64,000 nt of DNA from Escherichia coli (lineage in GTDB: Bacteria; Pseudomonadota; Gammaproteobacteria; Enterobacterales; Enterobacteriaceae), in assembly GCF_003334765.1 (NCBI RefSeq), contig NZ_QOWT01000010.1. One strand, given 5' to 3'. The position numbers and the translations under genes are program-made. The notes under the pieces were generated by a model, which searched no databases, was not told where the DNA came from, and was given only the letters and a program-made list of their open reading frames with translations. The stretch's first letter is position 1. Every line of letters starts with the position of its first letter. Positions 1 through 49,922 of this stretch are shown here, one piece after another.

Positions 1-1627
1 ACCCTTGGGCAAACAGAATTTCACTTTGCTGGATTAAACTCCACAAAGCGTAGTGCCAGACATCGTGCTGGCGTGCCATCTGTTCGGTTTGCTGCATTAG
101 CGCCAGTGAGCGGGTCAATTCGCCTTTGCAGTGCAGCACTTCACCCAGCACCGAGGTTGCCACAATGCGGCTATAGAACCAGCCCGGCGGCAGCTCTTCC
201 AGTGCCAGTTTTGCCAGCCGTTCCGCTTCATCCGGATTACCATCGTTAATCGCCACCTGGGCGCGCAGAGCGTTAAATTCTGCGTGCATGGTGTCTTCTC
301 TGATGTCCTTGATTTCATGTTCAGCACGGGCTAGCAGGGTGTTAACTTCGCCGTAGCGATGTTGGCTTTGCATCAGCCACGCCTGCAATAACACCAACTG
401 CGGATTTTCCAGCAAGCTGTCCCACGGCAGGGCCTTAAGCGACTCTTCCAGCAGCGACAGTTCGCTATGGTTGAACAGACTCCAGGCGTGATTAAGCAGA
501 ATATCGCGCAGCATCAGCGCATCGCCTGCCGCCAGCGCATGATGAATCGCTTCGCTGGGAAATCCCTGGGCCATCCAGCTTTCTGCGGCGGCACGGTGGA
601 TTTCCGGCAGCTCCGCCGCCAGTTCCCACTGGCAGCGCTGGCGCAGGAAGTTACCAAACAGCGGGTGATAGCAGAACCACTCGCCGGTATCATCCATCCG
701 CTGTAAAAACAGCCCCTGACGCTCAATCTCTTCGAGGCGCATTTGCCCGTTTTCTTCGCCGGTCACACGGGTGATGAGGGCATCGTTCATTGAGCGCAAA
801 ATGGCGCTTTTCAACAGAAAATGGCGCGTTGCGAGATCGACGTTATCCAAAACCTCATCGACCAGATAATCCGAAAGATGGCTGGCATTGATTCCCGCCA
901 GGCGGCGTGCCGACTTATGGGCTGAGTGGGTATTCTGCCGGGCGGAGAGGGCGATTAGCTGTAGTGCCGTCGCCCAACCGGAAACGTCATCGCAAATCCG
1001 ACTGCTTTCTGCGGCTTCAATCGGCGATGACAGACGGCAATCAAAAAACTGCTTCGCTTCCTGATGGGTAAATGCCAGTTGCTGACTGCCAATTTCCAGC
1101 AGTTGATCACGAACACGCAGATTGGCAATGCCCAGTTGCGGAAGGTTGCGTGACAACACCACCAGGGTGAGATTTTCTGGTTGATGGCGAATAAAGAAGC
1201 GCATTGACTCGTGGATCACTGGATTAGTGATCAGATGATAGTCATCGATGACCAGATAAAGTGGGCTATGCCATTCCGCCAGCTCAATGAAAAGCTGGGC
1301 GAAGAGTGACGTCAGGCTGGCATATTGCCGTTTTTGCGCCATCGTCTCACATATCGCACAGTGACCGTTGGTTGCCTGCTGCACGGCGGCAATGAGATAG
1401 CTGGCGAAACGCTCTTGCTGGTTATCACCTTCATCCAGCGAGTACCAGCCGATATCGTTTTTGCCTGCCGCCCACTGGGAAATGAGGGTGGTCTTTCCGT
1501 AGCCCGCAGGACTCGTGATCAGCGCCAGCCGGAAGTTGTTCGCGCCGGAAAGTTTAGCCAGCAGGCGCTCACGAACCACGGTATGGTCGAGTCGAACCGG
1601 ACGACTTAGTTTTGACGGAATCAGCAT
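1..1627 (-). CDS. malT: MalT, maltose regulon transcriptional activator (5' portion only; gene continues beyond window start)
   Basis: Reverse complement of ~1590-1627 translates [12 protein letters not shown], the MalT N-terminus; reading frame stays open to the window edge; divergent from malP as in K-12. Not in the ORF track because it is truncated by the window. Confidence 0.88.
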
Positions 1628-2120
1628 AGTTAATCACTTCACTGTGGAAAATGAGGAAATATTATTTTTTTTGCGCTTCGTAATTAATGGTTATAAGGTC
1701 GGCCAGAAACCTTTCTAATGCAAGCGATGACGTTTTTTTATGTGTCTGAATTTGCACTGTGTCACAATTCCAAATCTTTATTAACAACTCACCTAAAACG
1801 ACGCTGATCCAGCGTGAATACTGGTTTCCCTTATGTTCATCAGATTCATTTAAGCAAGGGTTTCTTCTTCATTCCTGATGAAAGTGCCATCTAAAAAGAT
1901 GATCTTAATAAATCTATTAAGAATGAGATGGAGCACACTGGATATTTTACTTATGAAACTGTTTCACTCCTTTACTTAATTTATAGAGTTACCTTCCGCT
2001 TTTTGAAAATACGCAACGGCCATTTTTTGCACTTAGATACAGATTTTCTGCGCTGTATTGCATTGATTTGATGCTAATCCTGTGGTTTGCACTAGCTTTA
2101 AGTGGTTGAGATCACATTTC

Positions 2121-2170
2121 CTTGCTCATCCCCGCAACTCCTCCCTGCCTAATCCCCCGCAGGATGAGGA
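2121..2170 (+). promoter_or_regulatory. malP promoter region with two inverted MalT-box hexamers (GGATGA / TCATCC)
   Basis: tcatcc at ~2126-2131 and ggatga at ~2162-2167, about 70-110 bp upstream of the malP ATG. MalT box consensus GGA(T/G)GA is from established knowledge; exact site boundaries not verified. Confidence 0.55.
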
Positions 2171-2214
2171 AGGTCAACATCGAGCCTGGCAAACTAGCGA
2201 TAACGTTGTGTTGA

Positions 2215-4632
<2,418 letters not shown>

Positions 4633-10666: not shown

Positions 10667-11545
10667 TTACTGACTCGCCGCAGCCAACTCTTCTTCTGAC
10701 AGCCCGGTAAAGCGCATGATGTCTGCAAGAGGAACTCCGGATTCAAGCATTATTTTGGCTATATGCAGGGCTTTGGATTGTTCCCCCTCCTGCCGCAATC
10801 TTTCCGCAATAGTCATTAAACTCTCCTTGTGTTTCGGTGAACGTTCGGCAACGCCGTCGATAAAATCGTTAAAACGTACAGCGTCGCCAGTTTGCAGTAT
10901 GTAATTAAACAGCCCTTTGATTTGTCTGTCATTAGCGTATCCACTACTTAATAAGCAGGCCATTTGCTCTACCAGCCCCATCAGGTCGCGTTGACGAATA
11001 TGTTTTTGAATTAACTCCAGCAGCGCCATACGTCGGTGCTGCATGATTTCATCATCAGGCATGACGGTGACATCAATCAGCGGAAATGCGGAGGCATAAA
11101 GCTGCCTTGCCAGTTTGGGATCGGCGAAACAATCCAGCCAACACAGCGAATAGGGATAGGGGCTTTCAATACCGTGGTAAAACAACAATGGCACCACCAT
11201 CGGCAACGTTTTGTATCCAGCATCAAGGTGATTTTGCATTGCGGCAATAGCGTAACGCATCATGCGAAATGCGATCAGTTTGTTTGAGGTGCTTTGATGT
11301 TCAATCAGACAATAGATGTATCCTGGTCCTTGTTCCGTTTTCACCGACCACAGCACATCGGAATAGCTTTCACGCAGATCGTCATCAATAAAGCTGCTCG
11401 ACTCCAGCTTGAGGGTTTTCATATCACAAAGCGCGTGAATGGGTGCCGGTAAATGAAACGCAAGAAAATCACGAGCCGTGTCCGGTTGGCGTAAAAAGAG
11501 TTTGAACAGCGCATCGTGTGGGGTGGAACTCTGCTTTTTGCTCAT
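10667..11545 (-). CDS. rpnA: Recombination-promoting nuclease RpnA (YhgA), transposase_31 / PD-(D/E)XK family
   Basis: 292-aa ORF; [33 protein letters not shown] recognised as YhgA; no flanking inverted repeats seen. Confidence 0.88.
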
Positions 11546-11688
11546 GGCGTTCCTTCACCTGTTGTTTGAATGCCGCGACTCTACGCGCCACTCCACACCT
11601 GTGTATTAGCGAGTTTTCATCCCTGCGAGATGCTTTCAAAGGAACTTACGCCGTGCTGCAAGAGTTGCATTTTTATGGAAAGCCGCAC

Positions 11689-11723
11689 GCAAAAAAGCCC
11701 GGATGCAGACGCATACCGGGCTT
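11689..11723 (-). terminator. Rho-independent terminator downstream of feoC
   Basis: On the minus strand AAGCCCGG-13 nt loop-CCGGGCTT followed by TTTTTT; lies 25-60 bp after the feoC stop. Confidence 0.7.
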
Positions 11724-11747
11724 TCCAAAACAGGCGATGGAGTAAGG

Positions 11748-11984
11748 TTAACGCAGCGCCCACCACTCGCGCAGACAGGCTTTTCCTTCCGGGCAGCTTT
11801 TACAACTGCCAGAGAGGCAGCCGTCAGGTTCTTCCTGAATCCGCACGGCTTTGCCCATACTTTCCAGTTGTTGCAGCATGGCGTTAATCATTGGCTGTGG
11901 AGTGTTCAATGTCTGGCTTATCTGGGCCGCTTCCATACGGCCCCGTAACGCCAGCAAATCGCGCACCTGAATAAGTGAAGCCAT
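11748..11984 (-). CDS. feoC: FeoC, ferrous iron transport transcriptional regulator-like protein
   Basis: 78 aa from ATG at 11984 ([17 protein letters not shown]...); ORF track extends 3 codons upstream via a non-ATG start; start overlaps feoB stop as TAATG. Confidence 0.88.
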
Positions 11985-14305
11985 TAATGGCAATCACCGG
12001 TGGTGCTGGCTGCGCAGCAACTGCTTACCGACTTGCGGGTTGCCAGCAGTTCGATATCCACCCGGCTACGCGCGCGGCGCAGCAGACCGATAACCACGAT
12101 GTTAAACAGGATAACCGCCAGAATGCACACCAGGCTGTAAGTTGGATGCTGACTGTAGCTGGCGACCTGATAGAACAATGTTGCCAGTGAGTAAGCGATA
12201 TTCAGCCCCCACAGGATGGAGAAGCCCATCCAGCCACGGCTTGATTCACGGGCGATAGCCCCCATCACCGAGATACATGGTACATACAGCAGGACGAAAA
12301 TCAGGTAGCTGTAAGCTGCTGCTGCGCTACCGAATTTCTGATCCATCACGCCCATCGCCCCGGTACCCATTTCGCCGTCGCCTTTGCTGGCTTCAATGGG
12401 GTTCATCAGTACGCTAAGGCTGAAGGTGTCTTTCAGGCTCTGCCAGGTTTCATCTATCGCACTGAACAGCTCTTCACCGAGGTTAAATTCTGCCGGATTG
12501 AACTCTTCGTCCTGAATATTTTCTGCGGTGTAGAGGGTGTTGAGCGTACCCACTACCACTTCTTTCGCCATGGCACCTGTAAACAGGCCAACCGTTGCCT
12601 GCCAGTTATCTTCATGCACGCCAATTGGCTTGAAGACCGGGGTGATCACCCGGCTGACGGACGCCAGCGCCGAGTCGTTGATGTTATCGACGATTTTCCC
12701 GCTCAGCGAGAAGCTGTTGAAAGCGCTCAGGAAAATGCTGACGATGATGATCACTTTACCAGCACGCAGAACGAAGCCTTTCAGACGCTGCCAGGTCTGG
12801 ATAATCAGGCTTTTAACGTGTGGTACATGATAGACCGGCAACTCCATGACAAACGGCGTCGCTTCACCGCGCATGATGGTGTACTTGAGCATCAGGCCAG
12901 TCAGCACCGCCATCACAATACCCAGCATATACAGCGAGAAGACCGCCAGCGCACCGTTCTGCCCGAAGAAGGCAGCCGCGAATACTGCGAAGATAGCCAG
13001 ACGCGCGCCGCAGGACATAAACGGTGCCATCATGATGGTCATCAGACGTTCACGCGGTGCATCAAGCGTACGTGCACCCATTACCGACGGTACGTTACAA
13101 CCGAAACCGACGATCAGCGGCACAAAGGATTTCCCCGGCAAGCCCAGCGCCTGCATCAGACGGTCCATCACAAACGCCGCACGCGCCATATACCCGGAGT
13201 CCTCAAGGAAGGAGAGGAACAGGTACATCATGCCAATCTGCGGCACCAGTGGCAGCACGGTGTTAATGCCGCCACCCAGGCCCTGGGCGAGGAAGATAGT
13301 CAGCCAGTCCGGGAAGTGGAGCGTGTAGCCAATCCATTGAATACCATGCACAAATAGCGCCACGGAGCCGACGTCAAACAGCGGCTGTAACGCCCCGCCG
13401 ATGTTGATAGCCAGCAGGAACATCAGGTACATCACAAAGAGGAAAATCGGCAGACCGAGGAAACGGTTGAGCACGATTTTATCTACCGCAGTGGTGAAAC
13501 GGCTGGGTTCTGCCGTCAGGGTGTTGCTTACCACATCACAGATGGCAGCAATGCACTGGTAACGCGCATCGGCAATGTGCAGCGCCGGATCGTCCATCTC
13601 ATTACGCAGACGGGCGAGGGCGGCATCCAGATGCTGCGACGCTTCACCGGCGTAGGCGCGGCTGTAGATATCGCCTTCCAGCATTTGCAGGCCCAGCCAG
13701 CGACGTTGTTTCAGCGGGATGTCGGAAGGCATCACTTTTGCCAGTGAATCTGCTTCGTTGAGCAGCGGCTGTGCGTAATGCACCAGTTCCACATTCTCGT
13801 TAGCTTTATAGCGATCAATCGCCAGCTTGAGCGCTTCAATACCGCGACCACGGGTTGAAACCAGCGGGATCACCGGACAGCCCAGACGCGCCGACAGAGC
13901 ATCAATTTCAATACGAATATTTTGCTTCTCGGCAATGTCGAGCATGTTCAGTGCCACAATGCAGGGAATGCCGAGTTCCAGCAGTTGTAGCGTCAGGTAC
14001 AGGTTACGCTCAAGGTTAGACGCATCCACCACGTTAATCAGCAGGTCGGCGTCGCCACTCAAAATGTAGTGACAGGCGATTTGCTCATCGAGCGAGGTCT
14101 GCGATGAGATGGTGGTCAGAGAATAGGTGCCGGGCAGGTCCACCAGCGTGACCTGATGATCGGTGGTGGAGAATTGCCCTTCTTTACGTTCGACGGTAAC
14201 GCCAGCCCAGTTACCTACACGCTGACGTGAGCCAGTGAGCTGGTTAAATAACGTTGTCTTGCCAGAATTTGGATTACCAATTAAGCCAATGGTTAATTTT
14301 TTCAT
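11984..14305 (-). CDS. feoB: Ferrous iron transporter FeoB (GTPase + permease)
   Basis: 773 aa from ATG at 14305 ([26 protein letters not shown]1 motif GNPNSGKT); ORF track adds 4 upstream codons. Confidence 0.95.
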
Positions 14306-14321
14306 TGTTGTTATCACCGTA

Positions 14322-14549
14322 TTAACAGGAAACCGCTTCCACTTCTAATAAGGCCAGATCTTTTTTGCGTAATACCAGGCTCACACGACGGGTTTCGATA
14401 TGAATGGGGTCGCCGAGTGGAGCGACGCGCACCACATTAAAAGAGGAGCCAGGTAACATGCCAAGAGAAAGCAGTTTTTGGCGATATGCCGGGCTGATTT
14501 CACGGGAAAAGCCAGTGATTTTCCACGCAGTATCTGGAGTGTATTGCAT
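14322..14549 (-). CDS. feoA: FeoA
   Basis: 75-aa [40 protein letters not shown]...; 16 bp upstream of feoB. Confidence 0.95.
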
Positions 14550-14654
14550 AGGTGCCTACTTGTTTCTCATTAACTGGATAACTACCTCATGGGGCGTTTG
14601 ACAGCGACATGAGACCAGATGATTTGCCAACAAAGGAGAGATTAAATAATCAAC

Positions 14655-14680
14655 AACACAATGATAATGAGAATGGTTTC
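14655..14680. promoter_or_regulatory. Candidate Fur box upstream of feoA
   Basis: aatgataatgagaatgg resembles the Fur consensus GATAATGATAATCATTATC; about 110 bp upstream of the feoA ATG. Confidence 0.5.
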
Positions 14681-14738
14681 TATCAGCAATACTTAAAATG
14701 TGTGCGAATGTTGGTTTGAATAATAATCTGACTCAATG

Positions 14739-14752
14739 TTGATGTGGCTCAA
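14739..14752. promoter_or_regulatory. Candidate FNR site upstream of feoA
   Basis: ttgatgtggctcaa = TTGAT-N4-cTCAA, one mismatch to TTGAT-N4-ATCAA. Confidence 0.5.
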
Positions 14753-14880
14753 GGTTATATCGCAGCGAAAATATAATTCGAATAGTGAATTACCCGGACT
14801 GGCTAATGTTTAATTAAGGTTTCAGTTGTTAATGAAATGATAAATATTGCCGGAATATATTATGAGTTTGGCTGTGGAAT

Positions 14881-14913
14881 AAAAATGCCGGAGATATTCT
14901 CCGGCACTTTTAT
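14881..14913 (-). terminator. Rho-independent terminator downstream of tex/yhgF
   Basis: tgccggag-atatt-ctccggca hairpin flanked by an A-run on plus (T-run on minus). Confidence 0.65.
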
Positions 14914-14930
14914 GTCAGGCAAGGCGTTCG

Positions 14931-15004
14931 TTGCCAGATGCGGCGTGAACGCCTTATCTGCCCTACGATTTCGTGCAAATTCGAACCGTAGGCCAGTACG
15001 GGCG
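14931..15004. repeat. REP palindromic element(s)
   Basis: gccagatgcggcgtgaacgccttatctgccctacg ... cgtaggccagtacgggcg immediately after the tex stop. Confidence 0.7.
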
Positions 15005-15005
15005 T

Positions 15006-17327
15006 TTAACGTTTTTTGCCCATTGCCGCCGCCAGCGCATCCATCATCGCGCTATTACCGGCAGGCTGCGCTTCACGACCGCGTGGTTTGGCTGCCGGGC
15101 GGTTGTTTTGCGGGCGTTCATTACCGCCGCCGCGACGAGCGTTGGTTTCGCCAGGCTGCTCATCCAGGCGCATAGTCAGGGCGATACGTTTACGCTGAAG
15201 ATCCACTTCCAGCACTTTCACCTTCACAATGTCGCCCGCTTTCACCACGGTATGCGGATCTTCCACAAACTTGTTCGACAATGAAGAGATGTGAACCAGG
15301 CCGTCCTGATGCACGCCAATATCGACAAACGCGCCAAAGTTGGTGACGTTGGTCACTGCGCCTTCGAGGATCATACCCGGTTGCAGGTCGTTCATTGTCT
15401 CGACGCCATCGGCAAACTGAGCGGTTTTAAATTCCGGACGCGGATCGCGACCCGGTTTTTCCAGCTCTTTGATGATGTCGGTTACCGTCGGCACACCGAA
15501 TTTCTCATCAGTAAAGTCAGACGCTTTCAGGTTACGCAGTTCGCTGCTGTTACCCATCAGATCTTTCAGTGCCTGCTGTGTTGCTGCCAGAATGCGTTCC
15601 ACCACCGGATAGGCTTCCGGGTGAACGGTAGACGCGTCCAGCGGGTTATCACCGTGGTTAATGCGCAAGAAGCCCGCGCACTGCTCGAAGGCTTTCGGCC
15701 CCAGACGGCTCACTTTTAACAGTTGCTGACGGTTCTGGAACTGACCGTTCTCATCGCGCCAGGCAACGATGTTTTGCGCCATCATGCGCGTCAGGCCCGC
15801 CACGCGGGTTAACAGCGGAACAGAAGCAGTGTTGAGATCGACGCCAACGGCGTTTACGCAGTCTTCTACTACTGCGTCCAGTTTGCGGGCCAGTTGCGTC
15901 TGGCTGACGTCATGCTGATACTGACCTACGCCGATAGATTTCGGATCGATTTTCACCAGCTCCGCCAGCGGATCCTGCAAACGGCGGGCGATAGACACCG
16001 CGCCACGCAGCGAAACGTCGAGATCCGGGAACTCCTGTGCAGCCAGCTCGGAAGCCGAGTAAACCGACGCGCCTGCTTCGCTGACGATTACTTTCTGCGC
16101 GGTCACTTTCGGGAACTGCTTCTGCACATCGAGATAGAAACGCTCAGTTTCGCGGGAAGCTGTACCGTTACCGATCGCTACCAGTTCAACGTTATGTTTT
16201 TCACACAGCGCAGCAACGGTCATCGCTGCTTTTGCGGCCTGTCCGGTGTGCGGGTAAATGGTGTCGGTCGCCACCAGTTTGCCAGTGGCATCGACCACCG
16301 CCACTTTTACCCCAGTACGCAGACCCGGATCGAGGCCCATCGTTGCACGCAGTCCGGCAGGGGCCGCCATCAGCAGATCGTGCAGGTTACGGGCAAAGAC
16401 GTTGATTGCTTCATCTTCCGCACGTTCGCGCACGGTGCCCATCAGTTCGGTTTCCAGATGCATCAGCACCTTGATGCGCCACGTCCAGCTCACCACGCCT
16501 TTGCGCCAGCTATCCGCCGGGGCATTGTTCAGGCGCAGGCCAAGGTGATCCATGATGATTTGCTCGCAATAGCTCTCTTTGGGCGGCTCATCGAACTGTG
16601 GATCGGCATTCAGCGAAAGCTGAAGTACGCCTTCGTTACGCCCACGGAACATCGCCAGCGCGCGGTGAGAAGGCACCGTGGACAACGGTTCGTGATGATC
16701 GAAATAGTCGCGGAATTTCGCCCCTTCCTCTTCTTTACCGCTCACCACCGTAGAAACCAAATGCGCGTTCTTCCACAGATAATCACGCACTTTCGCCAGC
16801 AGCGCGGCATCTTCGGCAAACCGTTCCATCAGGATATAGCGCGCGCCATCCAGCGCGGCTTTGGTATCTGCCACGCCTTTATCGGCATCAACATATTGTG
16901 CAGCGGCGACTTCTGGCGTGTGTGACGGATCGCTCCACAGCAGGTCAGCCAACGGCTCAAGCCCTGCTTCAATGGCGATTTGCCCGCGGGTGCGGCGTTT
17001 AGGTTTGTAGGGCAGGTAGAGGTCTTCGAGTTCGGTTTTGCTTAGGGTGGCGTTGATGGCCTTCGCCAGATCATCGGTGAGTTTGCCTTGCTCGGAAATG
17101 GACTTGAGGATCGCCTGACGTCTCTCTTCCAGCTCGCGCAGATAGCTCAGACGCGTTTCCAGATTACGCAGCTGCGTGTCATCCAGACCGCCGGTGATTT
17201 CCTTACGATAACGTGCGATAAACGGCACGGTATTCCCTTCGTCAAGCAGGCGAACGGCAGCGTCAACCTGTTCCGGGCGCGCCTGAATTTCACCCGCAAT
17301 AATGCGGCAGAACGAATCATTCATCAT
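15006..17327 (-). CDS. tex: Tex-like transcription accessory protein with S1 domain (YhgF)
   Basis: 773-aa ORF; [43 protein letters not shown] (Tex N-terminus); C-terminal S1-like region and basic tail. Confidence 0.93.
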
Positions 17328-17423
17328 GGTTTGAGTTCATCTTTTCGGATCAAAAATCAGGGGATAGTTATACGGACTGGCTGGCAAAAATGCCAGCCAT
17401 CGGCAGGAGGTTAAGACTCTTCC

Positions 17424-17900
17424 TTACGGTTTCACGTACTCGATAGCATTAACATACCAGCTCGCTTCCCCGGCAGGGGTATTCACCACCGCCAGATCGC
17501 CGACTTCTTTTTTCAGCAATGCGCGGGCCATCGGGGAATCGATAGAGATGTAATCTTTACGGCCAAAAATTTCATCGTAGCCGACAATACGGAAACGGTG
17601 AGTCACGCCATCGTCGTTTTCAATCTCCACCCACGCGCCAAAAAAGACTTTGCCTTCCTGCTGAGGGGAGTAATCGACGATTTTGAGATTTTCCAGGCAT
17701 TTAGTGAGATAGCGCACGCGACGGTCGATTTCACGCAGACGCTTTTTATTATACTGATAGTCAGCATTTTCGCTGCGGTCGCCCAGACTTGCGGCCCAGG
17801 TCACCTTTTTTGTGACCTCCGGGCGTTCTTCACGCCAGAGATAATTAAGCTCTTGTTTGAGTTTTTCATACCCTTCCCGGGTAACCAGGGGCGTTTTCAT
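17424..17900 (-). CDS. greB: Transcription elongation factor GreB
   Basis: 158 aa from internal ATG at 17900 (MKTPLVTREGYEKLKQELNYLW); ORF track has a 12-codon upstream extension. Confidence 0.92.
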   Translation of the reverse strand: MKTPLVTREGYEKLKQELNYLWREERPEVTKKVTWAASLGDRSENADYQYNKKRLREIDRRVRYLTKCLENLKIVDYSPQQEGKVFFGAWVEIENDDGVTHRFRIVGYDEIFGRKDYISIDSPMARALLKKEVGDLAVVNTPAGEASWYVNAIEYVKP

Positions 17901-18127
17901 CTCGTTGATTCCCTTTGTCTGTTTGATAATGCGCACATTGGGTATAACGTGATCATATCAACAGAATCAATAATGTTTCGCCGAATAAATTGTATACTTA
18001 AGCTGCTGTTTAATATGCTTTGTAACAATTTAGGCTGAAATTCATACCAGATTTAGCTGGTGACGAACGTGAGCTTTTTTAAGAATACACGCTTACAAAT
18101 TGTTGCGAACCTTTGGGAGTACAAACA

Positions 18128-42078: not shown

Positions 42079-42111
42079 TTCACTATTGCTGGCAAATTGC
42101 GCTTTGTTCAT

Positions 42112-42200
42112 GCCGGATGCGGCGTGAACGCCTTATCCGGCCTACAAAGTAATGCACATATTGCAAGGAAATGTAGGCCTGATAAGCGTAGCGCATCAGG
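42112..42200. repeat. BIME: two REP units in inverted orientation
   Basis: gccggatgcggcgtgaacgccttatccggcctac ... gtaggcctgataagcgtagcgcatcaggc downstream of trpS. Confidence 0.8.
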
Positions 42201-42225
42201 CAATTTTGCTTTTATCATCACTCTG

Positions 42226-42250
42226 AAACCGGGGAAACCCGGTTTTTTTA
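42226..42250 (+). terminator. Rho-independent terminator ending the aroK...trpS transcription unit
   Basis: accggg-gaaa-cccggt followed by ttttttt. Confidence 0.75.
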
Positions 42251-42367
42251 TCCTCATTTGCAATAATCCGAAAAAATGTGAAGTGCCTCGCCGTTTCCAC
42301 ATCTCGCTGTTGCGCCTTATCTTCAAATTCCTGAAGATATAAATATTCAATTTACTGAAAATTTATT

Positions 42368-43273
42368 ATGCGTCGAACGTTTATCAAAAAAGAAGGCGTC
42401 GTCATCACGACGCTGGCCCGTTATTTGTTGGGTGAAAAGTGCGGTAATCGATTGAAAACCATAGATGAGCTGGCAAATGAATGCCGTTCATCCGTTGGCC
42501 TGACGCAGGCCGCGTTGAAAACGCTGGAATCAAGCGGAGCGATACGGATTGAACGCCGTGGGCGCAATGGCAGTTATCTGGTCGAGATGGATAACAAAGC
42601 ATTGCTGACTCATGTGGATATCAACAACGTGGTATGTGCAATGCCCTTGCCCTATACCCGTTTGTACGAAGGCCTGGCGAGCGGATTGAAAGCCCAGTTT
42701 GATGGCATTCCTTTTTACTATGCGCACATGCGTGGCGCGGATATTCGCGTGGAGTGTCTGCTTAATGGCGTGTATGACATGGCGGTGGTTTCGCGACTAG
42801 CGGCGGAAAGTTATCTCACGCAAAAAGGCTTATGCCTCGCGCTGGAGTTGGGGCCGCACACCTACGTTGGCGAGCACCAGTTGATTTGCCGTAAAGGCGA
42901 GTCCGCAAACGTGAAGCGCGTGGGGCTGGATAACCGTTCGGCGGATCAGAAAATCATGACCGATGTTTTTTTTGGCGGTAGTGATGTGGAACGAGTCGAT
43001 CTCTCTTATCACGAGAGTTTACAACGCATTGTTAAAGGCGATGTCGATGCGGTGATCTGGAACGTGGTGGCGGAAAACGAACTGACCATGCTGGGATTAG
43101 AGGCGACGCCGCTCACAGACGATCCGCGATTTTTACAGGCCACCGAAGCCGTGGTCCTGACGCGAGTCGATGATTACCCAATGCAACAACTGCTGCGTGC
43201 CGTTGTAGATAAACACGCCCTGCTCGCCCATCAACAACGGGTAGTGAGTGGGGAACAGGAACCGAGTTATTAA
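42368..43273 (+). CDS. yhfZ: YhfZ, putative DNA-binding transcriptional regulator
   Basis: 301-aa ORF MRRTFIKKEGVVITTLARYLLGEKCGNRLKTIDELANECRSSVGLTQ; N-terminal HTH-like segment. Confidence 0.83.
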   Translation: MRRTFIKKEGVVITTLARYLLGEKCGNRLKTIDELANECRSSVGLTQAALKTLESSGAIRIERRGRNGSYLVEMDNKALLTHVDINNVVCAMPLPYTRLYEGLASGLKAQFDGIPFYYAHMRGADIRVECLLNGVYDMAVVSRLAAESYLTQKGLCLALELGPHTYVGEHQLICRKGESANVKRVGLDNRSADQKIMTDVFFGGSDVERVDLSYHESLQRIVKGDVDAVIWNVVAENELTMLGLEATPLTDDPRFLQATEAVVLTRVDDYPMQQLLRAVVDKHALLAHQQRVVSGEQEPSY

Positions 43274-43289
43274 ACGAAAGGCATCTGAT

Positions 43290-43652
43290 ATGGAAACCAG
43301 ACTCAACCTGCTTTGCGAGGCAGGCGTTATTGATAAGGACATCTGCAAAGGCATGATGCAGGTCGTCAACGTACTGGAAACAGAGTGCCATCTGCCGGTG
43401 CGCAGTGAGCAAGGAACGATGGCGATGACACATATGGCGAGTGCACTGATGCGCAGTCGCCGTGGTGAAGAAATAGAGCCGCTGGATAACGAGTTGCTGG
43501 CAGAACTGGCGCAATCCAGCCACTGGCAAGCCGTTGTGCAATTGCATCAGGTGTTGTTGAAGGAATTCGCACTGGAAGTTAACCCGTGTGAAGAAGGCTA
43601 TTTGCTGGCCAACCTTTATGGATTATGGATGGCTGCTAACGAAGAGGTTTGA
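43290..43652 (+). CDS. yhfY: YhfY, small PRD-like protein
   Basis: 120 aa from internal ATG at 43290 (METRLNLLCEAGVIDKDICKGMMQ); ORF track has a 14-codon extension overlapping yhfZ. Confidence 0.78.
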   Translation: METRLNLLCEAGVIDKDICKGMMQVVNVLETECHLPVRSEQGTMAMTHMASALMRSRRGEEIEPLDNELLAELAQSSHWQAVVQLHQVLLKEFALEVNPCEEGYLLANLYGLWMAANEEV

Positions 43653-43730
43653 AGCTCCCGACAAATCCACGTCGCACAACCTAAATATTCAAAAAAATGA
43701 ATATTTAAGGAACAGAAACGAGGCAACAAG

Positions 43731-44894
43731 ATGTTTGTAGAAGCATTGAAACGCCAGAACCCGGCGCTGATTTCCGCCGCACTAAGCCTGTGGCAGCAGG
43801 GCAAGATCGCCCCGGACAGCTGGGTGATCGACGTGGATCAGATACTGGAAAACGGTAAGCGGCTGATTGAGACGGCGCGGCTTTACGGCATTGAACTGTA
43901 TCTGATGACCAAGCAGTTTGGTCGTAATCCGTGGCTGGCGGAAAAATTGCTGGCATTAGGCTACAGCGGCATTGTGGCGGTGGATTACAAAGAGGCGCGA
44001 GTCATGCGCCGCGCTGGTTTGCCTGTGGCGCATCAGGGGCATCTGGTACAAATCCCTTGTCATCAGGTTGCTGACGCCGTTGAACAGGGCACCGACGTCA
44101 TCACCGTGTTTACTCTCGACAAAGCGCGGGAAGTTTCTGCGGCGGCGGTGAAGGCCGGGCGAATCCAGTCTGTGCTGCTTAAAGTTTATAGCGACGATGA
44201 TTTTCTTTATCCGGGCCAGGAGAGCGGTTTTGCCCTCAAGGTGTTGCCGGAGATTGTCGCCGAAATCCAGAATCTGCCAGGGCTGCATTTAGCCGGACTT
44301 ACCCATTTCCCTTGCCTGCTTTGGGATGAGGCTGTCGGAAAAGTTTTGCCGACACCGAATCTTCACACGCTGATACAGGCACGGGATCAACTGGCGAAAT
44401 CTGGTATTGCACTTGAGCAACTGAACGCGCCTTCAGCGACCAGCTGCACTTCGCTGCCATTACTGGCGCAATACGGTGTGACTCATGCCGAACCCGGTCA
44501 TGCGCTGACGGGCACTATTCCGGCAAACCAGCAGGGCGATCAGCCTGAACGTATCGCGATGCTCTGGTTAAGTGAAATCTCCCATCATTTCCGTGGCGAC
44601 AGCTACTGCTACGGCGGCGGTTACTATCGTCGTGGTCATGCGCAACATGCGTTGGTGTTTACGCCAGAAAATCAAAAGATTACTGAAACCAATCTCAAAA
44701 CTGTGGATGACAGCAGTATCGACTACACCCTGCCGCTGGCAGGCGAGTTTCCGGTAAGCAGTGCAGTGGTGCTCTGTTTTCGCACGCAGATTTTTGTCAC
44801 CCGTAGCGATGTGGTGCTGGTGTCCGGTATTCATCGTGGCGAACCGGAAATCGTCGGTCGTTATGACAGTCTTGGAAACTCTCTGGGGGCGTAA
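43731..44894 (+). CDS. yhfX: YhfX, putative PLP-dependent racemase-like (alanine racemase fold) protein
   Basis: 387-aa [46 protein letters not shown]. Confidence 0.83.
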
Positions 44895-46120
44895 TGGCGC
44901 GATTTGTGGTGTTAGTGATTGATAGCTTTGGCGTAGGGGCAATGAAAGATGTCACGCTGGTGCGTCCGCAAGATGCGGGAGCGAATACATGTGGTCACAT
45001 CCTGAGCCAGTTGCCGCATTTGCAGCTACCAACGCTGGAGAAGCTGGGGCTAATCAACGCATTGGGTTATGCGCCAGGCGATATGCAGCCGTCAGATTCC
45101 GCAACCTGGGGCGTGGCAGAGCTGCAACATGAAGGTGGCGATACCTTTATGGGGCATCAGGAAATTTTAGGCACGCGCCCGTTACCGCCGCTGCGGATGC
45201 CTTTTCGCGATGTGATTGACCGTGTTGAGCAGGCATTAGTTTCCGCTGGCTGGCAGGTGGAGCGCCGTGGCGATGATCTGCAATTTCTGTGGGTCAATCA
45301 GGCGGTTGCGATTGGCGATAATCTCGAGGCGGATTTAGGCCAGGTCTATAACATTACCGCCAATCTCTCTGTGATCTCTTTTGACGACGCAATCAAAATT
45401 GGTCGTATCGTGCGTGAGCAGGTACAGGTCGGTCGGGTCATTACATTTGGTGGCCTGTTAACCGACAGTCAACGCATTCTCGATGCCGCAGAAAGCAAAG
45501 AAGGGCGCTTTATTGGTATCAATGCGCCGCGTTCTGGCGCTTATGACAACGGTTTCCAAGTCGTGCATATGGGCTATGGCGTCGATGAAAAAGTGCAGGT
45601 GCCACAAAAACTGTATGAAGCAGGCGTGCCAACCGTGCTGGTGGGTAAGGTGGCAGATATCGTCAACAATCCTTATGGCGTGAGCTGGCAAAATCTGGTG
45701 GATAGCCAGCGGATTATGGATATCACCCTCAACGAATTTAACACCCATCCGACGGCGTTTATTTGCACCAACATTCAGGAAACCGACCTCGCTGGTCATG
45801 CAGAAGACGTCGCACGTTATGCCGAACGTTTGCAGGTCGTTGACCGTAACCTTGCCCGGCTTGTTGAGGCGATGCAGCCAGATGATTGCCTGGTCGTGAT
45901 GGCGGATCACGGCAACGATCCGACCATTGGTCACAGCCACCATACCCGCGAAGTGGTGCCAGTGCTGGTTTATCAGCAAGGGATGATCGCTACGCAGCTC
46001 GGTGTGCGCACCACGCTTTCTGATGTGGGGGCTACCGTGTGTGAATTTTTCCGCGCGCCACCGCCACAAAATGGTCGCTCTTTTCTTTCCTCCCTCCGGT
46101 TTGCAGGAGACACCCTATGA
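44894..46120 (+). CDS. yhfW: YhfW, putative phosphopentomutase-like metalloenzyme
   Basis: 408-aa [23 protein letters not shown]; start overlaps yhfX stop; C-terminal ADHGNDPT motif typical of the alkaline-phosphatase-like mutase superfamily. Confidence 0.83.
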
Positions 46121-46995
46121 GTTTTGATCCGACGGGTTACACCCTCGCCCATGAGCATCTGCATATTGATCTCTCCGGCTTTAAAAACAACGTGGACTGC
46201 CGCCTTGATCAGTATGCGTTCATTTGCCAGGAGATGAACGACCTGATGACCCGGGGCGTGCGTAATGTGATTGAGATGACCAACCGTTACATGGGGCGCA
46301 ATGCGCAATTTATGCTTGATGTAATGCGCGAGACGGGGATCAACGTGGTGGCCTGTACCGGTTATTACCAGGACGCGTTTTTCCCGGAACATGTGGCGAC
46401 CCGCAGCGTGCAGGAACTGGCGCAGGAGATGGTCGATGAAATTGAACAGGGTATCGATGGCACGGAGCTGAAAGCCGGGATCATCGCGGAGATCGGCACC
46501 AGCGAAGGAAAGATTACGCCGCTGGAAGAGAAGGTATTTATTGCCGCTGCGCTGGCGCATAACCAGACCGGACGCCCGATCTCCACGCATACGTCGTTCA
46601 GCACGATGGGGCTGGAGCAACTGGCGTTGCTACAAGCCCACGGGGTTGATCTTTCGCGCGTCACCGTTGGTCACTGCGATCTGAAAGACAACCTCGACAA
46701 CATTTTGAAGATGATCGATCTCGGCGCGTACGTGCAGTTCGACACCATCGGCAAGAACAGTTACTACCCGGACGAAAAGCGTATTGCGATGCTTCATGCG
46801 CTACGCGACCGTGGGTTGCTGAACCGCGTCATGCTGTCGATGGATATTACGCGCCGCTCCCATTTAAAAGCCAACGGTGGTTATGGCTATGACTATTTAC
46901 TAACCACCTTTATTCCGCAATTGCGCCAGTCAGGATTCAGTCAGGCCGATGTGGATGTGATGTTACGTGAAAATCCCTCTCAATTTTTCCAATAA
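46117..46995 (+). CDS. php: Phosphotriesterase homology protein (amidohydrolase superfamily)
   Basis: 292-aa [25 protein letters not shown] (HxH metal-binding motif); 4-nt overlap with yhfW. Confidence 0.9.
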
Positions 46996-47005
46996 GGACA
47001 GACTC

Positions 47006-47359
47006 ATGAAAAAGATTGGCGTTGCAGGCTTACAGCGTGAGCAGATTAAAAAAACTATTGAAGCGACGGCTCCTGGCTGTTTTGAAGTTTTCATTCACAA
47101 CGACATGGAAGCGGCAATGAAGGTGAAATCCGGGCAACTGGATTATTACATCGGCGCGTGTAATACCGGTGCGGGCGCGGCATTGTCGATTGCCATCGCG
47201 GTGATAGGCTATAACAAAAGTTGCACCATTGCCAAACCAGGCATTAAAGCGAAAGACGAGCATATCGCCAAAATGATCGCTGAAGGAAAAGTGGCGTTTG
47301 GCCTTTCCGTTGAGCACGTCGAACACGCGATTCCGATGCTGATTAACCATCTGAAATAA
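47006..47359 (+). CDS. yhfU: YhfU, DUF2620-family protein
   Basis: 117 aa from internal ATG at 47006 (MKKIGVAGLQREQIKKTIEATAPG); ORF track extension overlaps the php 3' end. Confidence 0.78.
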   Translation: MKKIGVAGLQREQIKKTIEATAPGCFEVFIHNDMEAAMKVKSGQLDYYIGACNTGAGAALSIAIAVIGYNKSCTIAKPGIKAKDEHIAKMIAEGKVAFGLSVEHVEHAIPMLINHLK

Positions 47360-47370
47360 AAGGCACGACT

Positions 47371-48675
47371 ATGGATCTGTATATTCAGATTATCGTGGTG
47401 GCGTGCCTGACGGGTATGACATCGCTTCTGGCGCATCGCTCGGCGGCTGTTTTTCATGACGGCATCCGCCCGATCCTGCCGCAACTGATTGAAGGCTATA
47501 TGAACCGTCGCGAGGCGGGGAGTATCGCTTTTGGTCTGAGCATTGGTTTTGTGGCCTCGGTGGGGATCTCTTTTACCCTGAAAACCGGGCTGCTCAACGC
47601 ATGGTTACTCTTTCTTCCTACCGATATCCTCGGCGTCCTGGCGATAAACAGCCTGATGGCGTTTGGTCTTGGCGCTATCTGGGGCGTGTTGATCCTTACT
47701 TGCCTGTTGCCAGTAAACCAGCTGCTGACCGCGCTGCCGGTGGATGTATTAGGTAGCCTGGGGGAATTAAGCTCGCCGGTGGTTTCAGCTTTTGCACTGT
47801 TCCCGCTGGTGGCGATTTTCTACCAGTTTGGCTGGAAGCAAAGTCTGATCGCCGCCGTGGTGGTACTGATGACCCGTGTGGTAGTCGTGCGCTATTTCCC
47901 ACATCTTAACCCTGAATCCATCGAAATCTTTATTGGCATGGTGATGCTGCTGGGGATCGCGATAACTCACGACCTGCGTCATCGTGATGAAAATGACATT
48001 GATGCCAGCGGGCTTTCGGTGTTTGAAGAACGCACGTCACGGATTATCAAAAACTTACCCTATATCGCCATCGTGGGAGCATTGATTGCCGCCGTTGCCA
48101 GCATGAAGATTTTTGCTGGCAGTGAAGTGTCGATCTTCACACTGGAGAAAGCATATTCCGCAGGCGTAACGCCGGAACAATCGCAAACGCTGATTAATCA
48201 GGCGGCTCTGGCAGAATTTATGCGCGGACTGGGGTTTGTGCCGTTGATTGCCACCACCGCGTTAGCAACGGGTGTGTATGCAGTTGCGGGCTTTACCTTT
48301 GTTTATGCGGTGGGCTATCTCTCGCCGAATCCGATGGTTGCAGCGGTATTAGGCGCAGTGGTTATTTCGGCGGAAGTCTTGCTGCTTCGTTCGATCGGCA
48401 AATGGCTGGGACGCTACCCGTCGGTGCGTAATGCGTCGGATAACATCCGTAACGCCATGAATATGCTGATGGAAGTGGCGCTGCTGGTCGGTTCGATTTT
48501 CGCAGCAATTAAGATGGCGGGTTATACCGGATTCTCTATCGCGGTTGCCATTTACTTCCTCAACGAATCCCTGGGCCGTCCGGTACAGAAAATGGCGGCA
48601 CCGGTCGTGGCAGTAATGATCACCGGTATTCTGCTGAATGTTCTTTACTGGCTTGGCCTGTTCGTTCCGGCTTAA
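47371..48675 (+). CDS. yhfT: YhfT, polytopic inner membrane protein (putative transporter)
   Basis: 434-aa ORF MDLYIQIIVVACLTGMTSLLAH; strongly hydrophobic throughout. Confidence 0.85.
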   Translation: MDLYIQIIVVACLTGMTSLLAHRSAAVFHDGIRPILPQLIEGYMNRREAGSIAFGLSIGFVASVGISFTLKTGLLNAWLLFLPTDILGVLAINSLMAFGLGAIWGVLILTCLLPVNQLLTALPVDVLGSLGELSSPVVSAFALFPLVAIFYQFGWKQSLIAAVVVLMTRVVVVRYFPHLNPESIEIFIGMVMLLGIAITHDLRHRDENDIDASGLSVFEERTSRIIKNLPYIAIVGALIAAVASMKIFAGSEVSIFTLEKAYSAGVTPEQSQTLINQAALAEFMRGLGFVPLIATTALATGVYAVAGFTFVYAVGYLSPNPMVAAVLGAVVISAEVLLLRSIGKWLGRYPSVRNASDNIRNAMNMLMEVALLVGSIFAAIKMAGYTGFSIAVAIYFLNESLGRPVQKMAAPVVAVMITGILLNVLYWLGLFVPA

Positions 48676-48686
48676 GGAAGGCACCT

Positions 48687-49772
48687 ATGAAGACGTTTCC
48701 TCTGCAAAGCCTGACGATTATTGAGGCGCAGCAAAAGCAGTTTGCGCTGGTGGATAGCATTTGTCGCCATTTCCCCGGCAGCGAGTTTCTTACTGGCGGT
48801 GATTTAGGCTTAACGCCAGGACTGAATCAACCGCGCGTTACCCAGCGTGTGGAACAGGTGCTGGCTGATGCATTTCACGCACAGGCTGCGGCGCTGGTGC
48901 AGGGCGCGGGGACTGGCGCGATTCGCGCCGGGCTGGCGGCTTTGCTCAAACCGGGGCAGCGTCTTCTGGTGCATGACGCGCCTGTTTACCCGACGACACG
49001 GGTTATTATTGAGCAGATGGGGCTGACGCTTATTACTGTTGATTTCAATGACCTGTCGGCACTGAAGCAGGTCGTCGACGAGCAACAACCGGATGCGGCG
49101 CTGGTGCAGCATACGCGCCAGCAGCCGCAGGACAGCTACGTGCTGGCAGATGTGCTGGCAACGTTGCGCGCGGCAGGTGTTCCAGCGTTAACCGATGACA
49201 ACTATGCGGTGATGAAGGTGGCTCGAATCGGCTGTGAATGCGGCGCGAATGTCTCGACATTTTCCTGCTTCAAGCTATTTGGGCCAGAGGGTGTTGGTGC
49301 AGTGGTCGGCGATGCTGATGTTATCAACCGTATTCGCGCCACGCTTTACTCCGGCGGTAGCCAGATCCAGGGCGCACAGGCGCTGGAAGTATTGCGTGGT
49401 CTGGTGTTTGCGCCAGTGATGCACGCGGTGCAGGCAGGGGTATCTGAACGGTTGCTGGCTTTGCTTAACGGTGGTGCGGTGCCGGAAGTGAAAAGCGCGG
49501 TGATTGCTAATGCGCAGTCGAAGGTGTTGATTGTCGAGTTTCATCAGCCGATTGCCGCCAGAGTGCTGGAAGAGGCGCAAAAGCGCGGTGCCTTGCCTTA
49601 CCCGGTGGGTGCAGAGTCGAAATATGAAATCCCGCCGCTCTTTTATCGCCTTTCCGGAACGTTTCGCCAGGCGAATCCACAATCAGAACATTGTGCGATT
49701 CGCATTAACCCGAATCGCAGCGGTGAAGAGACGGTGCTGCGGATTTTGCGTGAGAGTATTGCCAGTATTTAA
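48687..49772 (+). CDS. yhfS: YhfS, putative PLP-dependent enzyme (aminotransferase-like fold)
   Basis: 361-aa ORF MKTFPLQSLTIIEAQQKQFALVDSICRHFPGSEFLTGG. Confidence 0.83.
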   Translation: MKTFPLQSLTIIEAQQKQFALVDSICRHFPGSEFLTGGDLGLTPGLNQPRVTQRVEQVLADAFHAQAAALVQGAGTGAIRAGLAALLKPGQRLLVHDAPVYPTTRVIIEQMGLTLITVDFNDLSALKQVVDEQQPDAALVQHTRQQPQDSYVLADVLATLRAAGVPALTDDNYAVMKVARIGCECGANVSTFSCFKLFGPEGVGAVVGDADVINRIRATLYSGGSQIQGAQALEVLRGLVFAPVMHAVQAGVSERLLALLNGGAVPEVKSAVIANAQSKVLIVEFHQPIAARVLEEAQKRGALPYPVGAESKYEIPPLFYRLSGTFRQANPQSEHCAIRINPNRSGEETVLRILRESIASI

Positions 49773-49807
49773 TGCTGGATAGCACCGTCAAGCTAAATTC
49801 CGTACTG

Positions 49808-49860
49808 AACGGTCCCCTCGCCCCTTTGGGGAGAGGGTTAGGGTGAGGGGAACGTACGGG
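49808..49860. repeat. GC-rich imperfect palindrome (REP-related intergenic repeat, family uncertain)
   Basis: ccgtactgaacggtcccctcgcccctttggggagagggttagggtgaggggaacgtacgg; outer arms ccgtac/gtacgg and inner C-rich/G-rich arms. Confidence 0.55.
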
Positions 49861-49885
49861 ATGTAAAATTCAACGCGCCAGCATC

Positions 49886-49922
49886 GCCGGATGCGATGCT
49901 GGCGCATCTTATCCGGCCTACG
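49886..49922. repeat. REP palindromic unit
   Basis: gccggatgcgatgctggcgcatcttatccggcctacg immediately downstream of frlR. Confidence 0.75.

Follow-up and report, generated by a model that had tools for sequence, protein, structure and literature searches.

The window analysed here, a stretch of 64,000 nucleotides from Escherichia coli contig NZ_QOWT01000010.1, carries the genes yhfZ, yhfY, yhfX, yhfW, php, yhfU, yhfT and yhfS side by side on one strand, and this cluster very probably forms one functional catabolic unit. The listing of open reading frames (ORFs) agreed with the RefSeq annotation of the copy in strain K-12 on eight co-directional genes at 42368-49772 (Table 1). The tight packing described in the first-pass annotation was recovered as well: the overlap is 1 base between yhfX and yhfW and 4 nt between yhfW and php, and the spacers reported there as about 10 bp measured 10 nt (php-yhfU), 11 nt (yhfU-yhfT) and 11 nt (yhfT-yhfS). 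The two remaining gaps were 16 nt (yhfZ-yhfY) and 78 nt (yhfY-yhfX). The genes are already known and annotated, and no new sequence was discovered. The 8-kb stretch showed 100% identity to strain 98-3133 and 99.9% to K-12, and at least 80% of the block was kept in 5060 of 5426 complete E. coli genomes (93%).

The distribution of the cluster was followed with an alignment scan for YhfT using one genome per species, which found relatives in 188 species and from which 80 loci were retrieved. Gene presence was scored by tblastn and ORF clustering, with 58 loci from different species offering at least 17 kb of sequence, and 24 loci were mapped gene by gene. Among the 58 long loci, yhfU, yhfT and yhfX were present in 58, yhfZ and php in 56, yhfW in 51 and yhfS in 25. 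Seven genes (yhfZ, yhfY, yhfX, yhfW, php, yhfU and yhfT) made up a conserved core, kept together in at least five bacterial lineages. The eight-gene unit proposed at first stood for these seven and not for yhfS, whose absence from Yersinia, Vibrionaceae and Clostridia marks it as a lineage-specific accessory gene. Gene order was shuffled between lineages, being Z-Y-X-W-php-U-T(-S) in Enterobacterales, Z-Y-php-U-T-X-W in Vibrionaceae, Z-(Y)-U-T-php-(Y)-X-W in Clostridiales and Z-Y-U-T-php-S-W/X in Bacillales, with yhfU and yhfT adjacent in nearly all loci. The core was also found in Sebaldella (Fusobacteria) and in metagenome contigs of 61-76% G+C, while several short metagenome contigs offered no further context. 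Judged by gene content across these loci, the clustering is far beyond chance.

Table 1. Coordinates of the cluster genes and associated features; positions refer to the window, except for the acid phosphatase genes, which are numbered within their own loci.
Feature	Position	Strand	Basis or remark
trpS intrinsic terminator, upstream boundary of the unit	42225-42246	+	9-bp stem, 5 G-C pairs, then T-run
Weaker palindrome ATCTTCA-N6-TGAAGAT, putative second operator before yhfZ	42316-42341		69% identity to the reference copy, 24 nt upstream of that copy
Palindrome TAAATATTCA-N6-TGAAAATTTA, putative YhfZ operator just 5' of the yhfZ start codon	42340-42365		One mismatch; repeat search
yhfZ	42368-43273	+	ORF listing and RefSeq annotation of K-12 copy
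yhfY	43290-43652	+	ORF listing and RefSeq annotation of K-12 copy
Perfect palindrome TAAATATTCA-N6-TGAATATTTA, putative YhfZ operator before yhfX	43682-43707		About 25 nt 5' of yhfX start
yhfX	43731-44894	+	ORF listing and RefSeq annotation of K-12 copy
yhfW	44894-46120	+	ORF listing and RefSeq annotation of K-12 copy
php	46117-46995	+	ORF listing and RefSeq annotation of K-12 copy
yhfU	47006-47359	+	ORF listing and RefSeq annotation of K-12 copy
yhfT	47371-48675	+	ORF listing and RefSeq annotation of K-12 copy
yhfS	48687-49772	+	ORF listing and RefSeq annotation of K-12 copy
Acid phosphatase genes after yhfT, Enterobacter sp. BIGb0383 (L037)	11341-13044		
Acid phosphatase genes after yhfT, Pluralibacter gergoviae (L032)	11339-12154		
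Acid phosphatase genes after yhfT, Shimwellia pseudoproteus (L046)	2887-3630		

The regulator YhfZ and the shared palindrome

YhfZ possessed HTH_41 (E = 1e-18) and YhfZ_C domains and matched NF041241 at 373.6 bits (cut-off 260). By these matches it is a winged-helix regulator of GntR type with a periplasmic-binding-protein-like ligand domain, the latter (residues 74-301) being the subject of PDB entry 2OZZ. A new element reported here is a conserved palindrome before yhfZ and yhfX, a likely candidate for the YhfZ operator. The motif AATATTCA-N6-TGAATATT, searched with up to three mismatches, had two matches in the window compared with 0.21 expected, one of which defined the pattern and leaves the other as the sole independent match. 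An unbiased repeat search gave the yhfZ/yhfX pair as its top direct and inverted family and also picked up the weaker palindrome 24 nt further upstream of yhfZ (Table 1).

The palindrome was also located about 31 nt 5' of yhfX in Klebsiella, Enterobacter, Ewingella and Yersinia loci, paired sites before yhfZ recurred in three further loci (L016, L031 and L043), and a Firmicutes variant, ATATACA-N6-TGTATAT, preceded both yhfZ and the first structural gene. Across the 80 loci, 110 of the 147 palindrome matches were positioned at -150 to +10 of cluster gene starts, an interval covering 5.9% of the sequence, although many of these loci are related and the match counts are not independent. The palindrome is conserved across phyla and is most likely bound by YhfZ, and its pattern is as expected for an autoregulated repressor or activator, presumably YhfZ itself.

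The operator positions, together with a RegulonDB-derived table in which php, yhfS, yhfT, yhfU, yhfW and yhfX form one operon (PMC4448311), suggest two transcription units under one regulator, yhfZY and yhfXW-php-yhfUTS, rather than a single transcript of all eight genes. A possible CRP site 5' of yhfZ was rejected, as its TGTGA...CACA pair is wrongly spaced. Consensus scans for internal terminators and promoters gave counts at or below chance and were uninformative.

Enzymes, transport and signalling proteins

For all eight products, domain, profile and PDB matches agreed with the classes assigned at first. YhfX is a fold-type III (alanine-racemase-like) pyridoxal 5'-phosphate (PLP) enzyme (PDB 4KBX) with an invariant K61, and its orthologues matched PF01168 and PF21279. 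Its family profile met alanine racemase and D-threonine aldolase only at E ~1e-3, so that no characterised subfamily includes it. The second PLP enzyme, YhfS (PDB 4J8L), belongs to fold-type I and has an invariant K196; its nearest named relatives were methionine gamma-lyase and O-succinylhomoserine sulfhydrylase (E between 1e-4 and 1e-6), and a SelA match (E ~1e-3) was obtained with one orthologue only. The PDB entries for the solved cluster structures were deposited as 'uncharacterized'.

YhfW passed a single model, the YhfW-type 'phosphopentomutase' PRK12383 (741.9 bits), and remained below the DeoB cut-offs (TIGR01696, 145.8 vs 341.2 bits; NF003766, 183.9 vs 256). Residues D10, D83, H88, D298, H302, D338, H339 and H350 were invariant, and position 84 was Thr in 15 sequences and Ser in 4. 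With its metal ligands and Thr/Ser nucleophile kept, YhfW is by sequence a phosphopentomutase-like Mn-metalloenzyme of the alkaline-phosphatase superfamily.

Php is a phosphotriesterase-family TIM barrel with a binuclear metal site, identical or near-identical to PDB entries 1BF6 and 4LEF, and matched NF007373 at 655 bits. H12, H14, E125, H158, H186 and D243 were invariant in 16 orthologues, the bridging-ligand position of the 1BF6 structure being occupied by Glu125, not Lys. Scores of 100.5 bits against the organophosphate hydrolase model NF041153 (cut-off 500) and 102.4 bits against the phospho-furanose lactonase model NF045706 (cut-off 630) place Php equally distant from both. Another member of the family, PTER, is an N-acetyltaurine amidase (PMC11374699).

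YhfU (DUF2620) belongs to a rare family, with 133 clusters at 50% identity among 1.84 billion representatives. The first-pass annotation had listed it simply as a DUF protein; it is an RpiB-fold protein, with the RpiB/LacAB fold and a Cys52-x-Thr/Ser-Gly-x-Gly loop. Conserved positions were D33, G50, G55 and the motif G-A-C-x-T/S-G-x-G, and the consensus G-A-C-x-T-G-x-G-G-A-L aligned with the Cys/Thr loop of RpiB. At 117 aa, YhfU is about 30 residues shorter than the matched RpiB chains (148-158 aa), and no conserved Asp or His after strand 1 was found in the family alignment. The phosphate-binding residues of RpiB lie in the C-terminal His/Arg part that YhfU lacks, and an N-terminal Asp-His pair is also part of the RpiB site. 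Given the short length and the missing Asp/His at strand 1, YhfU keeps the fold and catalytic loop of RpiB but only part of its active site. A possible kinship with the TIGR03577-type small glycine-rich protein of the EF_0829 cluster was dismissed, as no NCBIfam match appeared even at E = 10.

YhfT is a polytopic membrane protein (PF10797) and the presumed permease. Database 'proteins' joining YhfT to DUF2620, phosphotriesterase or YhfS domains (P0002, P0005, P0012, P0109) are probably frameshift or gene-calling artefacts in E. coli assemblies and were not used.

YhfY consists of 120 residues with a single stand-alone PTS regulation domain (PRD), matched by the Pfam PRD model at E = 9e-4 over model positions 2-84 of 90. 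It scored 28 bits, below the cut-off, against TIGR03582, the stand-alone PRD family of EF_0829/AHA_3910, and gave a weak GlcT match; orthologues on metagenome contigs matched PF00874. His48, Ala52, Arg55 and Glu101 were invariant in 19 orthologues, and the context of His48, T-H-L-A-x-A-x-x-R (His-x3-Ala-x2-Arg), is typical of phosphorylatable PRD histidines. A second His, missing in Gammaproteobacteria, occurred in Clostridia and otherwise in a single Bacillales locus (Pullulanibacillus, L080). The RpiB/LacAB fold of YhfU with its Cys-x-Thr-Gly-x-Gly loop, the one-domain PRD of YhfY with its invariant His, the lack of a structural relative for YhfT, and the embedded genes and absent kinase described in the next section are, like the palindrome, new here.

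The longest ORFs of yhfY and yhfU open at GTG codons, 14 codons (43248-43289) and 13 codons (46967-47005) 5' of the annotated ATG, respectively; so extended, yhfU would run over the last 29 nt of php. For both genes, the annotated ATG gave the better fit to the family alignments.

Embedded genes, substrate clues and flanking sequence

In four lineages unrelated to one another, the cluster has embedded genes for general proteins of the phosphotransferase system (PTS), namely HPr, Enzyme I (EI) or an HPr-EI fusion. PtsI (738 bits) lies directly 3' of yhfW in a Clostridiales locus (L071), and HPr, with GLHARPA and KSILSVMS motifs, occupies the same place in another Firmicute (L076). In three contigs of 76% G+C (L082-L084), the HPr gene is flanked by homologues of yhfW and yhfU, with overlaps of 4 nt, and in L097 an HPr-EI fusion is part of the same gene string as the cluster. 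None of the 24 mapped loci contained a conserved kinase gene. The embedded PTS proteins, His48 of YhfY, the lack of a conserved kinase and enzyme families that act on phosphorylated substrates together suggest phosphoenolpyruvate, through EI and HPr, as the phosphate source. A connection between the cluster and the PTS is, on balance, slightly favoured.

Other accessory genes offered clues to the substrate. NagB was encoded immediately 3' of the cluster in four Bacillales (TIGR00502, 293.6 bits; cut-off 236.9), and the L097 cluster held a two-SIS protein closest to NagB-II (158 bits) and the GlmS isomerase domain (137 bits). A GH18 enzyme flanked the L099 cluster, and cellobiose/chitobiose-type PTS genes were near the cluster in three Vibrionaceae. 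These associations point to amino-sugar phosphates. Amidase-type genes point to an amide bond: an amidase-signature-like gene was found 3' of yhfT in Sebaldella (L058, 11347-12378) and in a Fusobacteriales metagenome-assembled genome (L081, 1410-2447), and the AlphaFold-database protein G5HJH7 of Clostridium citroniae is a YhfT-like membrane domain fused to an amidase domain. An amine in the substrate is implied by the two PLP enzymes and the appended glucosamine-6-phosphate-deaminase-type genes. In three Enterobacterales, secreted or periplasmic acid phosphatases (PhoC-like and/or 5'-nucleotidase lipoprotein e(P4)) replaced yhfS after yhfT (Table 1). Finally, a metagenome contig of 43% G+C (L091, 1-7502) encoded YhfX-, YhfS- and YhfT-like proteins, a PRD protein and DUF2620 alongside two corrinoid-binding proteins and a methyltransferase of the MttB family, a combination suggesting that demethylation of a methylated amine can be linked to the module. 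A substrate of amino-sugar type can be proposed tentatively.

Outside the unit, trpS and a block of bacterial interspersed mosaic elements (BIME) and repetitive extragenic palindromes (REP) precede yhfZ, and REP-type repeats and the convergent frlR-frlA operon lie on the 3' side. The trpS-yhfZ interval contained at least two REP/BIME copies at about 42100-42215, which explain why the similarity search returned a median of about 38 matching sites per E. coli genome and also give rise to a sub-threshold Rfam naRNA4 match at 42106-42142; the terminator after trpS is a strong one. In a published survey, yhfZ is among the genes preceded by BIME 'attenuator' candidates (PMC2965389). The yhfS-frlR intergenic region (49800-49921) held a G-rich palindromic element (cccctcgcccctttggggagagggttagggtgagggg) and a REP copy whose 14-nt end, CTTATCCGGCCTAC, is identical to that at 42132-42145, with sub-threshold naRNA4 matches on both strands. 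This interval showed no clear intrinsic terminator for yhfS, and a search of the cluster region for riboswitches and small RNAs with Rfam at E<=1 returned only sub-threshold, REP-derived naRNA4 matches.

Proposed route, alternatives and known systems

The first-pass annotation read the cluster as taking up a small molecule, amine-bearing and possibly phosphorylated, and processing it step by step, and the conserved unit, the common operator motif, the embedded PTS genes without a kinase and the PLP and NagB-type genes fit that description. Its remark that no substrate has been established also held, as literature searches returned no functional study of the cluster genes in full text outside subscription journals; matches to strain 'B3379', to PF10797 as the highest Pfam index and to same-named Bacillus subtilis genes were false leads. 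With a probability of about 0.4 for the statement as a whole, the eight genes constitute one regulon that imports and degrades a single compound by a PTS-coupled route, the compound being of amino-sugar type and bearing an amide or lactone. The class favoured, at odds somewhat below even, is an N-acylated, N-aminoacylated or lactonised amino sugar or amino-aldonic acid.

From the gene content, conservation, palindrome, folds, catalytic residues and PTS/deaminase gene association observed here, we infer every reaction, the step order and the substrate class of the following route. A ligand would free YhfZ from the palindromes before yhfZ and yhfX, so that yhfZY and yhfXW-php-yhfUTS would both be controlled, and YhfT would import the compound. 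The compound or an intermediate would be phosphorylated from phosphoenolpyruvate via EI and HPr and not by an ATP kinase. YhfY (His48) and/or YhfU (Cys52 loop) may connect both the permease and YhfZ with EI and HPr, either as phosphocarriers of a non-canonical Enzyme II or as phosphorylation-dependent sensors, and so supply the phosphate or gate the permease. Php would then open a lactone, ester or amide bond, for which the phospho-sugar lactonases and PTER are precedents in its family, and YhfW would shift the phosphate to where the later enzymes require it. With PLP, YhfX may invert, epimerise or eliminate at the amine-bearing carbon, a pairing with precedent in OngB/OngC acting on 2-acetamido-2-deoxygluconate (PMC9537276), and YhfS, where present, would provide a second PLP step. 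The carbon skeleton would leave as a hexosamine-6-phosphate-like or keto-sugar-phosphate intermediate, with the last step performed by housekeeping NagB in E. coli and by cluster-encoded NagB or NagB-II-like proteins elsewhere.

Several observations weigh against this reading. YhfX and YhfS look like amino-acid enzymes, not sugar enzymes, and the L091 variant with its MttB protein points to methylated amines rather than sugars, so the module may be re-used for other amines. The PRD match of E. coli YhfY is weak (19.9 bits), no canonical EIIA, EIIB or EIIC is present in the cluster, and no structural relative of YhfT was found, the protein bearing no likeness to known EIIC or other solved transporters. 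Moreover, PTS genes were embedded in four lineages only and NagB-type genes in two, and such accessory links can be coincidental. The core itself has gaps: yhfW is missing in seven Yersinia species (L034, L036, L038, L040, L041, L044, L045), and three Enterovibrio loci (L057, L064, L067) retain only yhfU-yhfT-yhfX-yhfW, with no php, yhfZ or yhfY nearby. Not every step is therefore indispensable; these could be cases of gene loss under way, or some steps could be dispensable.

The likeness of the PLP enzymes to amino-acid enzymes would be expected if the substrate were a non-sugar amino-acid derivative (a lactone, lactam, ester, or N-methylated or N-acylated amino acid) and the PTS input purely regulatory. 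Once Php had opened or deacylated the compound, the D- or L-amino acid set free would undergo racemisation by YhfX and transamination or cleavage by YhfS; PRD and HPr would provide catabolite-type regulation, and YhfU would be an enzyme. The named relatives of YhfX are limited to alanine racemase, D-threonine aldolase and ornithine racemase, and those of YhfS are methionine gamma-lyase and cystathionine-type enzymes; L091 joins YhfX, YhfS, PRD and DUF2620 proteins to the methyltransferase and corrinoid proteins, SBP_bac_5 ATP-binding cassette systems adjoin the module in L088 and L097, and phosphotriesterase-family members hydrolyse homoserine lactones (PMC4323659) and N-acyl amines (PMC11374699). 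This explanation is nevertheless rather unlikely, leaving as it does the phosphopentomutase-like YhfW of the core, the appended NagB/NagB-II-like genes and the dedicated EI and HPr genes among the enzyme genes unexplained. YhfW takes a central place if the compound is instead a pentose-phosphate, nucleoside-like or phospho-aldonolactone one, with YhfW as a pentose 1,5-phosphomutase, YhfU as an RpiB-type aldose-ketose isomerase, Php as a phospho-furanose lactonase and the PLP enzymes acting on an attached amino group. YhfW is indeed the closest paralogue of DeoB-type phosphopentomutase with the catalytic set kept, and the RpiB fold and Cys-x-Thr loop of YhfU, the 102 bits of Php against the lactonase model and the periplasmic acid phosphatases in place of yhfS in Shimwellia, Pluralibacter and Enterobacter sp. 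BIGb0383 are in keeping with such a substrate. However, YhfU falls about 30 residues short of RpiB with no conserved Asp/His at its first strand, Php is just as distant from organophosphate hydrolase (100 bits), and a nucleoside phosphorylase or hydrolase never accompanied the cluster in the mapped loci, which makes a pentose-type compound quite improbable.

A functional tie to the adjacent frl operon, and hence to Amadori or Heyns products such as glycated lysine, is very improbable. In the window and in K-12, frlR-frlD-frlC-frlB-frlA follow immediately downstream in convergent orientation, and the SIS protein of L097 weakly matched fructoselysine-6-phosphate deglycase (26.8 bits). The adjacency is not conserved, though: in another E. 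coli (L002), Klebsiella spallanzanii (L012) and Buttiauxella (L016), yhfS is followed directly by other genes (at about 12400-18100 of these loci), which from their sizes and the E. coli map we take to be cysG, nirC, nirD and nirB. Such cysG/nir-sized genes after yhfS elsewhere indicate that the frl operon is an insertion or a variable segment and not a fixed neighbour. None of the distant clusters had frl genes, and the L097 protein is much closer to NagB-II and GlmS. Synteny thus largely refutes the frl linkage, and the Amadori compounds and lysine derivatives put forward in the first-pass annotation as compounds to test are not favoured, the frl operon not being co-conserved. If the genes were unrelated, shared no substrate and were cryptic or decaying, this could account for the absence of a reported phenotype or substrate in the literature found and for the loss of single genes in some lineages. 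Such a collection is hardly credible given a gene set kept across phyla despite rearrangement, catalytic residues invariant in all four enzymes, an operator palindrome in common and the retention of the block in E. coli genomes.

Php has been an orphan since its structure was determined in the 1990s and is regularly named as the nearest relative of the organophosphate hydrolases in E. coli, and YhfX, YhfS and YhfZ likewise have structures without functions. If the pathway were assigned, one of the larger blanks still left in the metabolic map of E. coli K-12 would be filled. For the PTS-coupled route to an amino-sugar-type compound, the comparative evidence favours amide- or lactone-bearing amino sugars and amino-aldonic acids over Amadori compounds, as well as a ptsI/ptsH-dependent phosphorylated intermediate. 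A further proposal, unlikely in itself, is that YhfT, YhfU and YhfY are a new type of PTS permease, in which YhfT would be an EIIC of new fold, YhfU an EIIB-like Cys phosphocarrier derived from the RpiB fold, and YhfY a relay that takes phosphate from HPr and reports transport to YhfZ. Such a family would feed an undescribed amino-sugar-conjugate route, giving Php, YhfW, YhfX and YhfS their substrates, and would be relevant to transport and carbon-catabolite signalling well beyond E. coli.

Among known systems, two served as working analogies. In the ula (sga) regulon, a PTS (UlaABC) takes up and phosphorylates L-ascorbate, and the lactonase UlaG and a few further enzymes convert it to a central sugar phosphate under a dedicated repressor. 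The likeness lies in PTS uptake of a non-glucose lactone compound, a metal-dependent lactonase and a dedicated regulator. Unlike the yhf cluster, ula has recognisable EIIA, EIIB and EIIC components, its UlaG has a metallo-beta-lactamase fold whereas Php is a phosphotriesterase-family TIM barrel, and its pathway includes neither PLP enzymes nor a phosphomutase. In the dga locus of Salmonella, reportedly the subject of work by Miller et al. in 2013, a mannose-family PTS is said to phosphorylate D-glucosaminate, which the PLP ammonia-lyase DgaE and the aldolase DgaF then process. Here an amino-sugar acid is phosphorylated by a PTS before a PLP enzyme removes its amine, which resembles the route proposed for the yhf cluster, but DgaE is a SelA-like fold-type I protein, the permease is a canonical mannose-type Enzyme II, and dga lacks a phosphotriesterase-family hydrolase, a mutase and DUF2620.

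The ong pathway for oxidised chitin (2-acetamido-2-deoxygluconate, GlcNAc1A) comprises the amidohydrolase-superfamily deacetylase OngB, the fold-type III PLP deaminase OngC, distantly related to D-serine deaminase and D-threonine aldolase, and KdgK (PMC9537276). OngB and OngC show the same pairing of enzyme classes as Php and YhfX. Ong differs in using a sodium-solute symporter and an ATP kinase, with phosphorylation last, and has no PRD protein, DUF2620, YhfT or mutase; YhfX is no closer to the OngC clade than to alanine racemase. The nag regulon offers a further parallel, with PTS uptake by NagE, the amidohydrolase-superfamily deacetylase NagA and the deaminase NagB, the last of which is the enzyme appended to the yhf cluster in Bacillales. 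Beyond these steps the yhf core has a phosphomutase and either one or two PLP enzymes, for which the nag pathway has no need, so the substrate must differ from N-acetylglucosamine.

The transport and signalling module of YhfT, RpiB-fold YhfU, single-PRD YhfY and separate YhfZ is without a characterised counterpart. YhfU differs from RpiB and LacAB in that its gene neighbours are those for a transporter and a PRD protein, not pentose-phosphate genes. YhfY shares the PRD with its conserved His with the regulators of the BglG/LicT and MtlR/LicR classes and TIGR03582, from which it differs in having a single PRD and no RNA-binding, DNA-binding, EIIA-like or EIIB-like domain, DNA binding being carried instead by the separate protein YhfZ.

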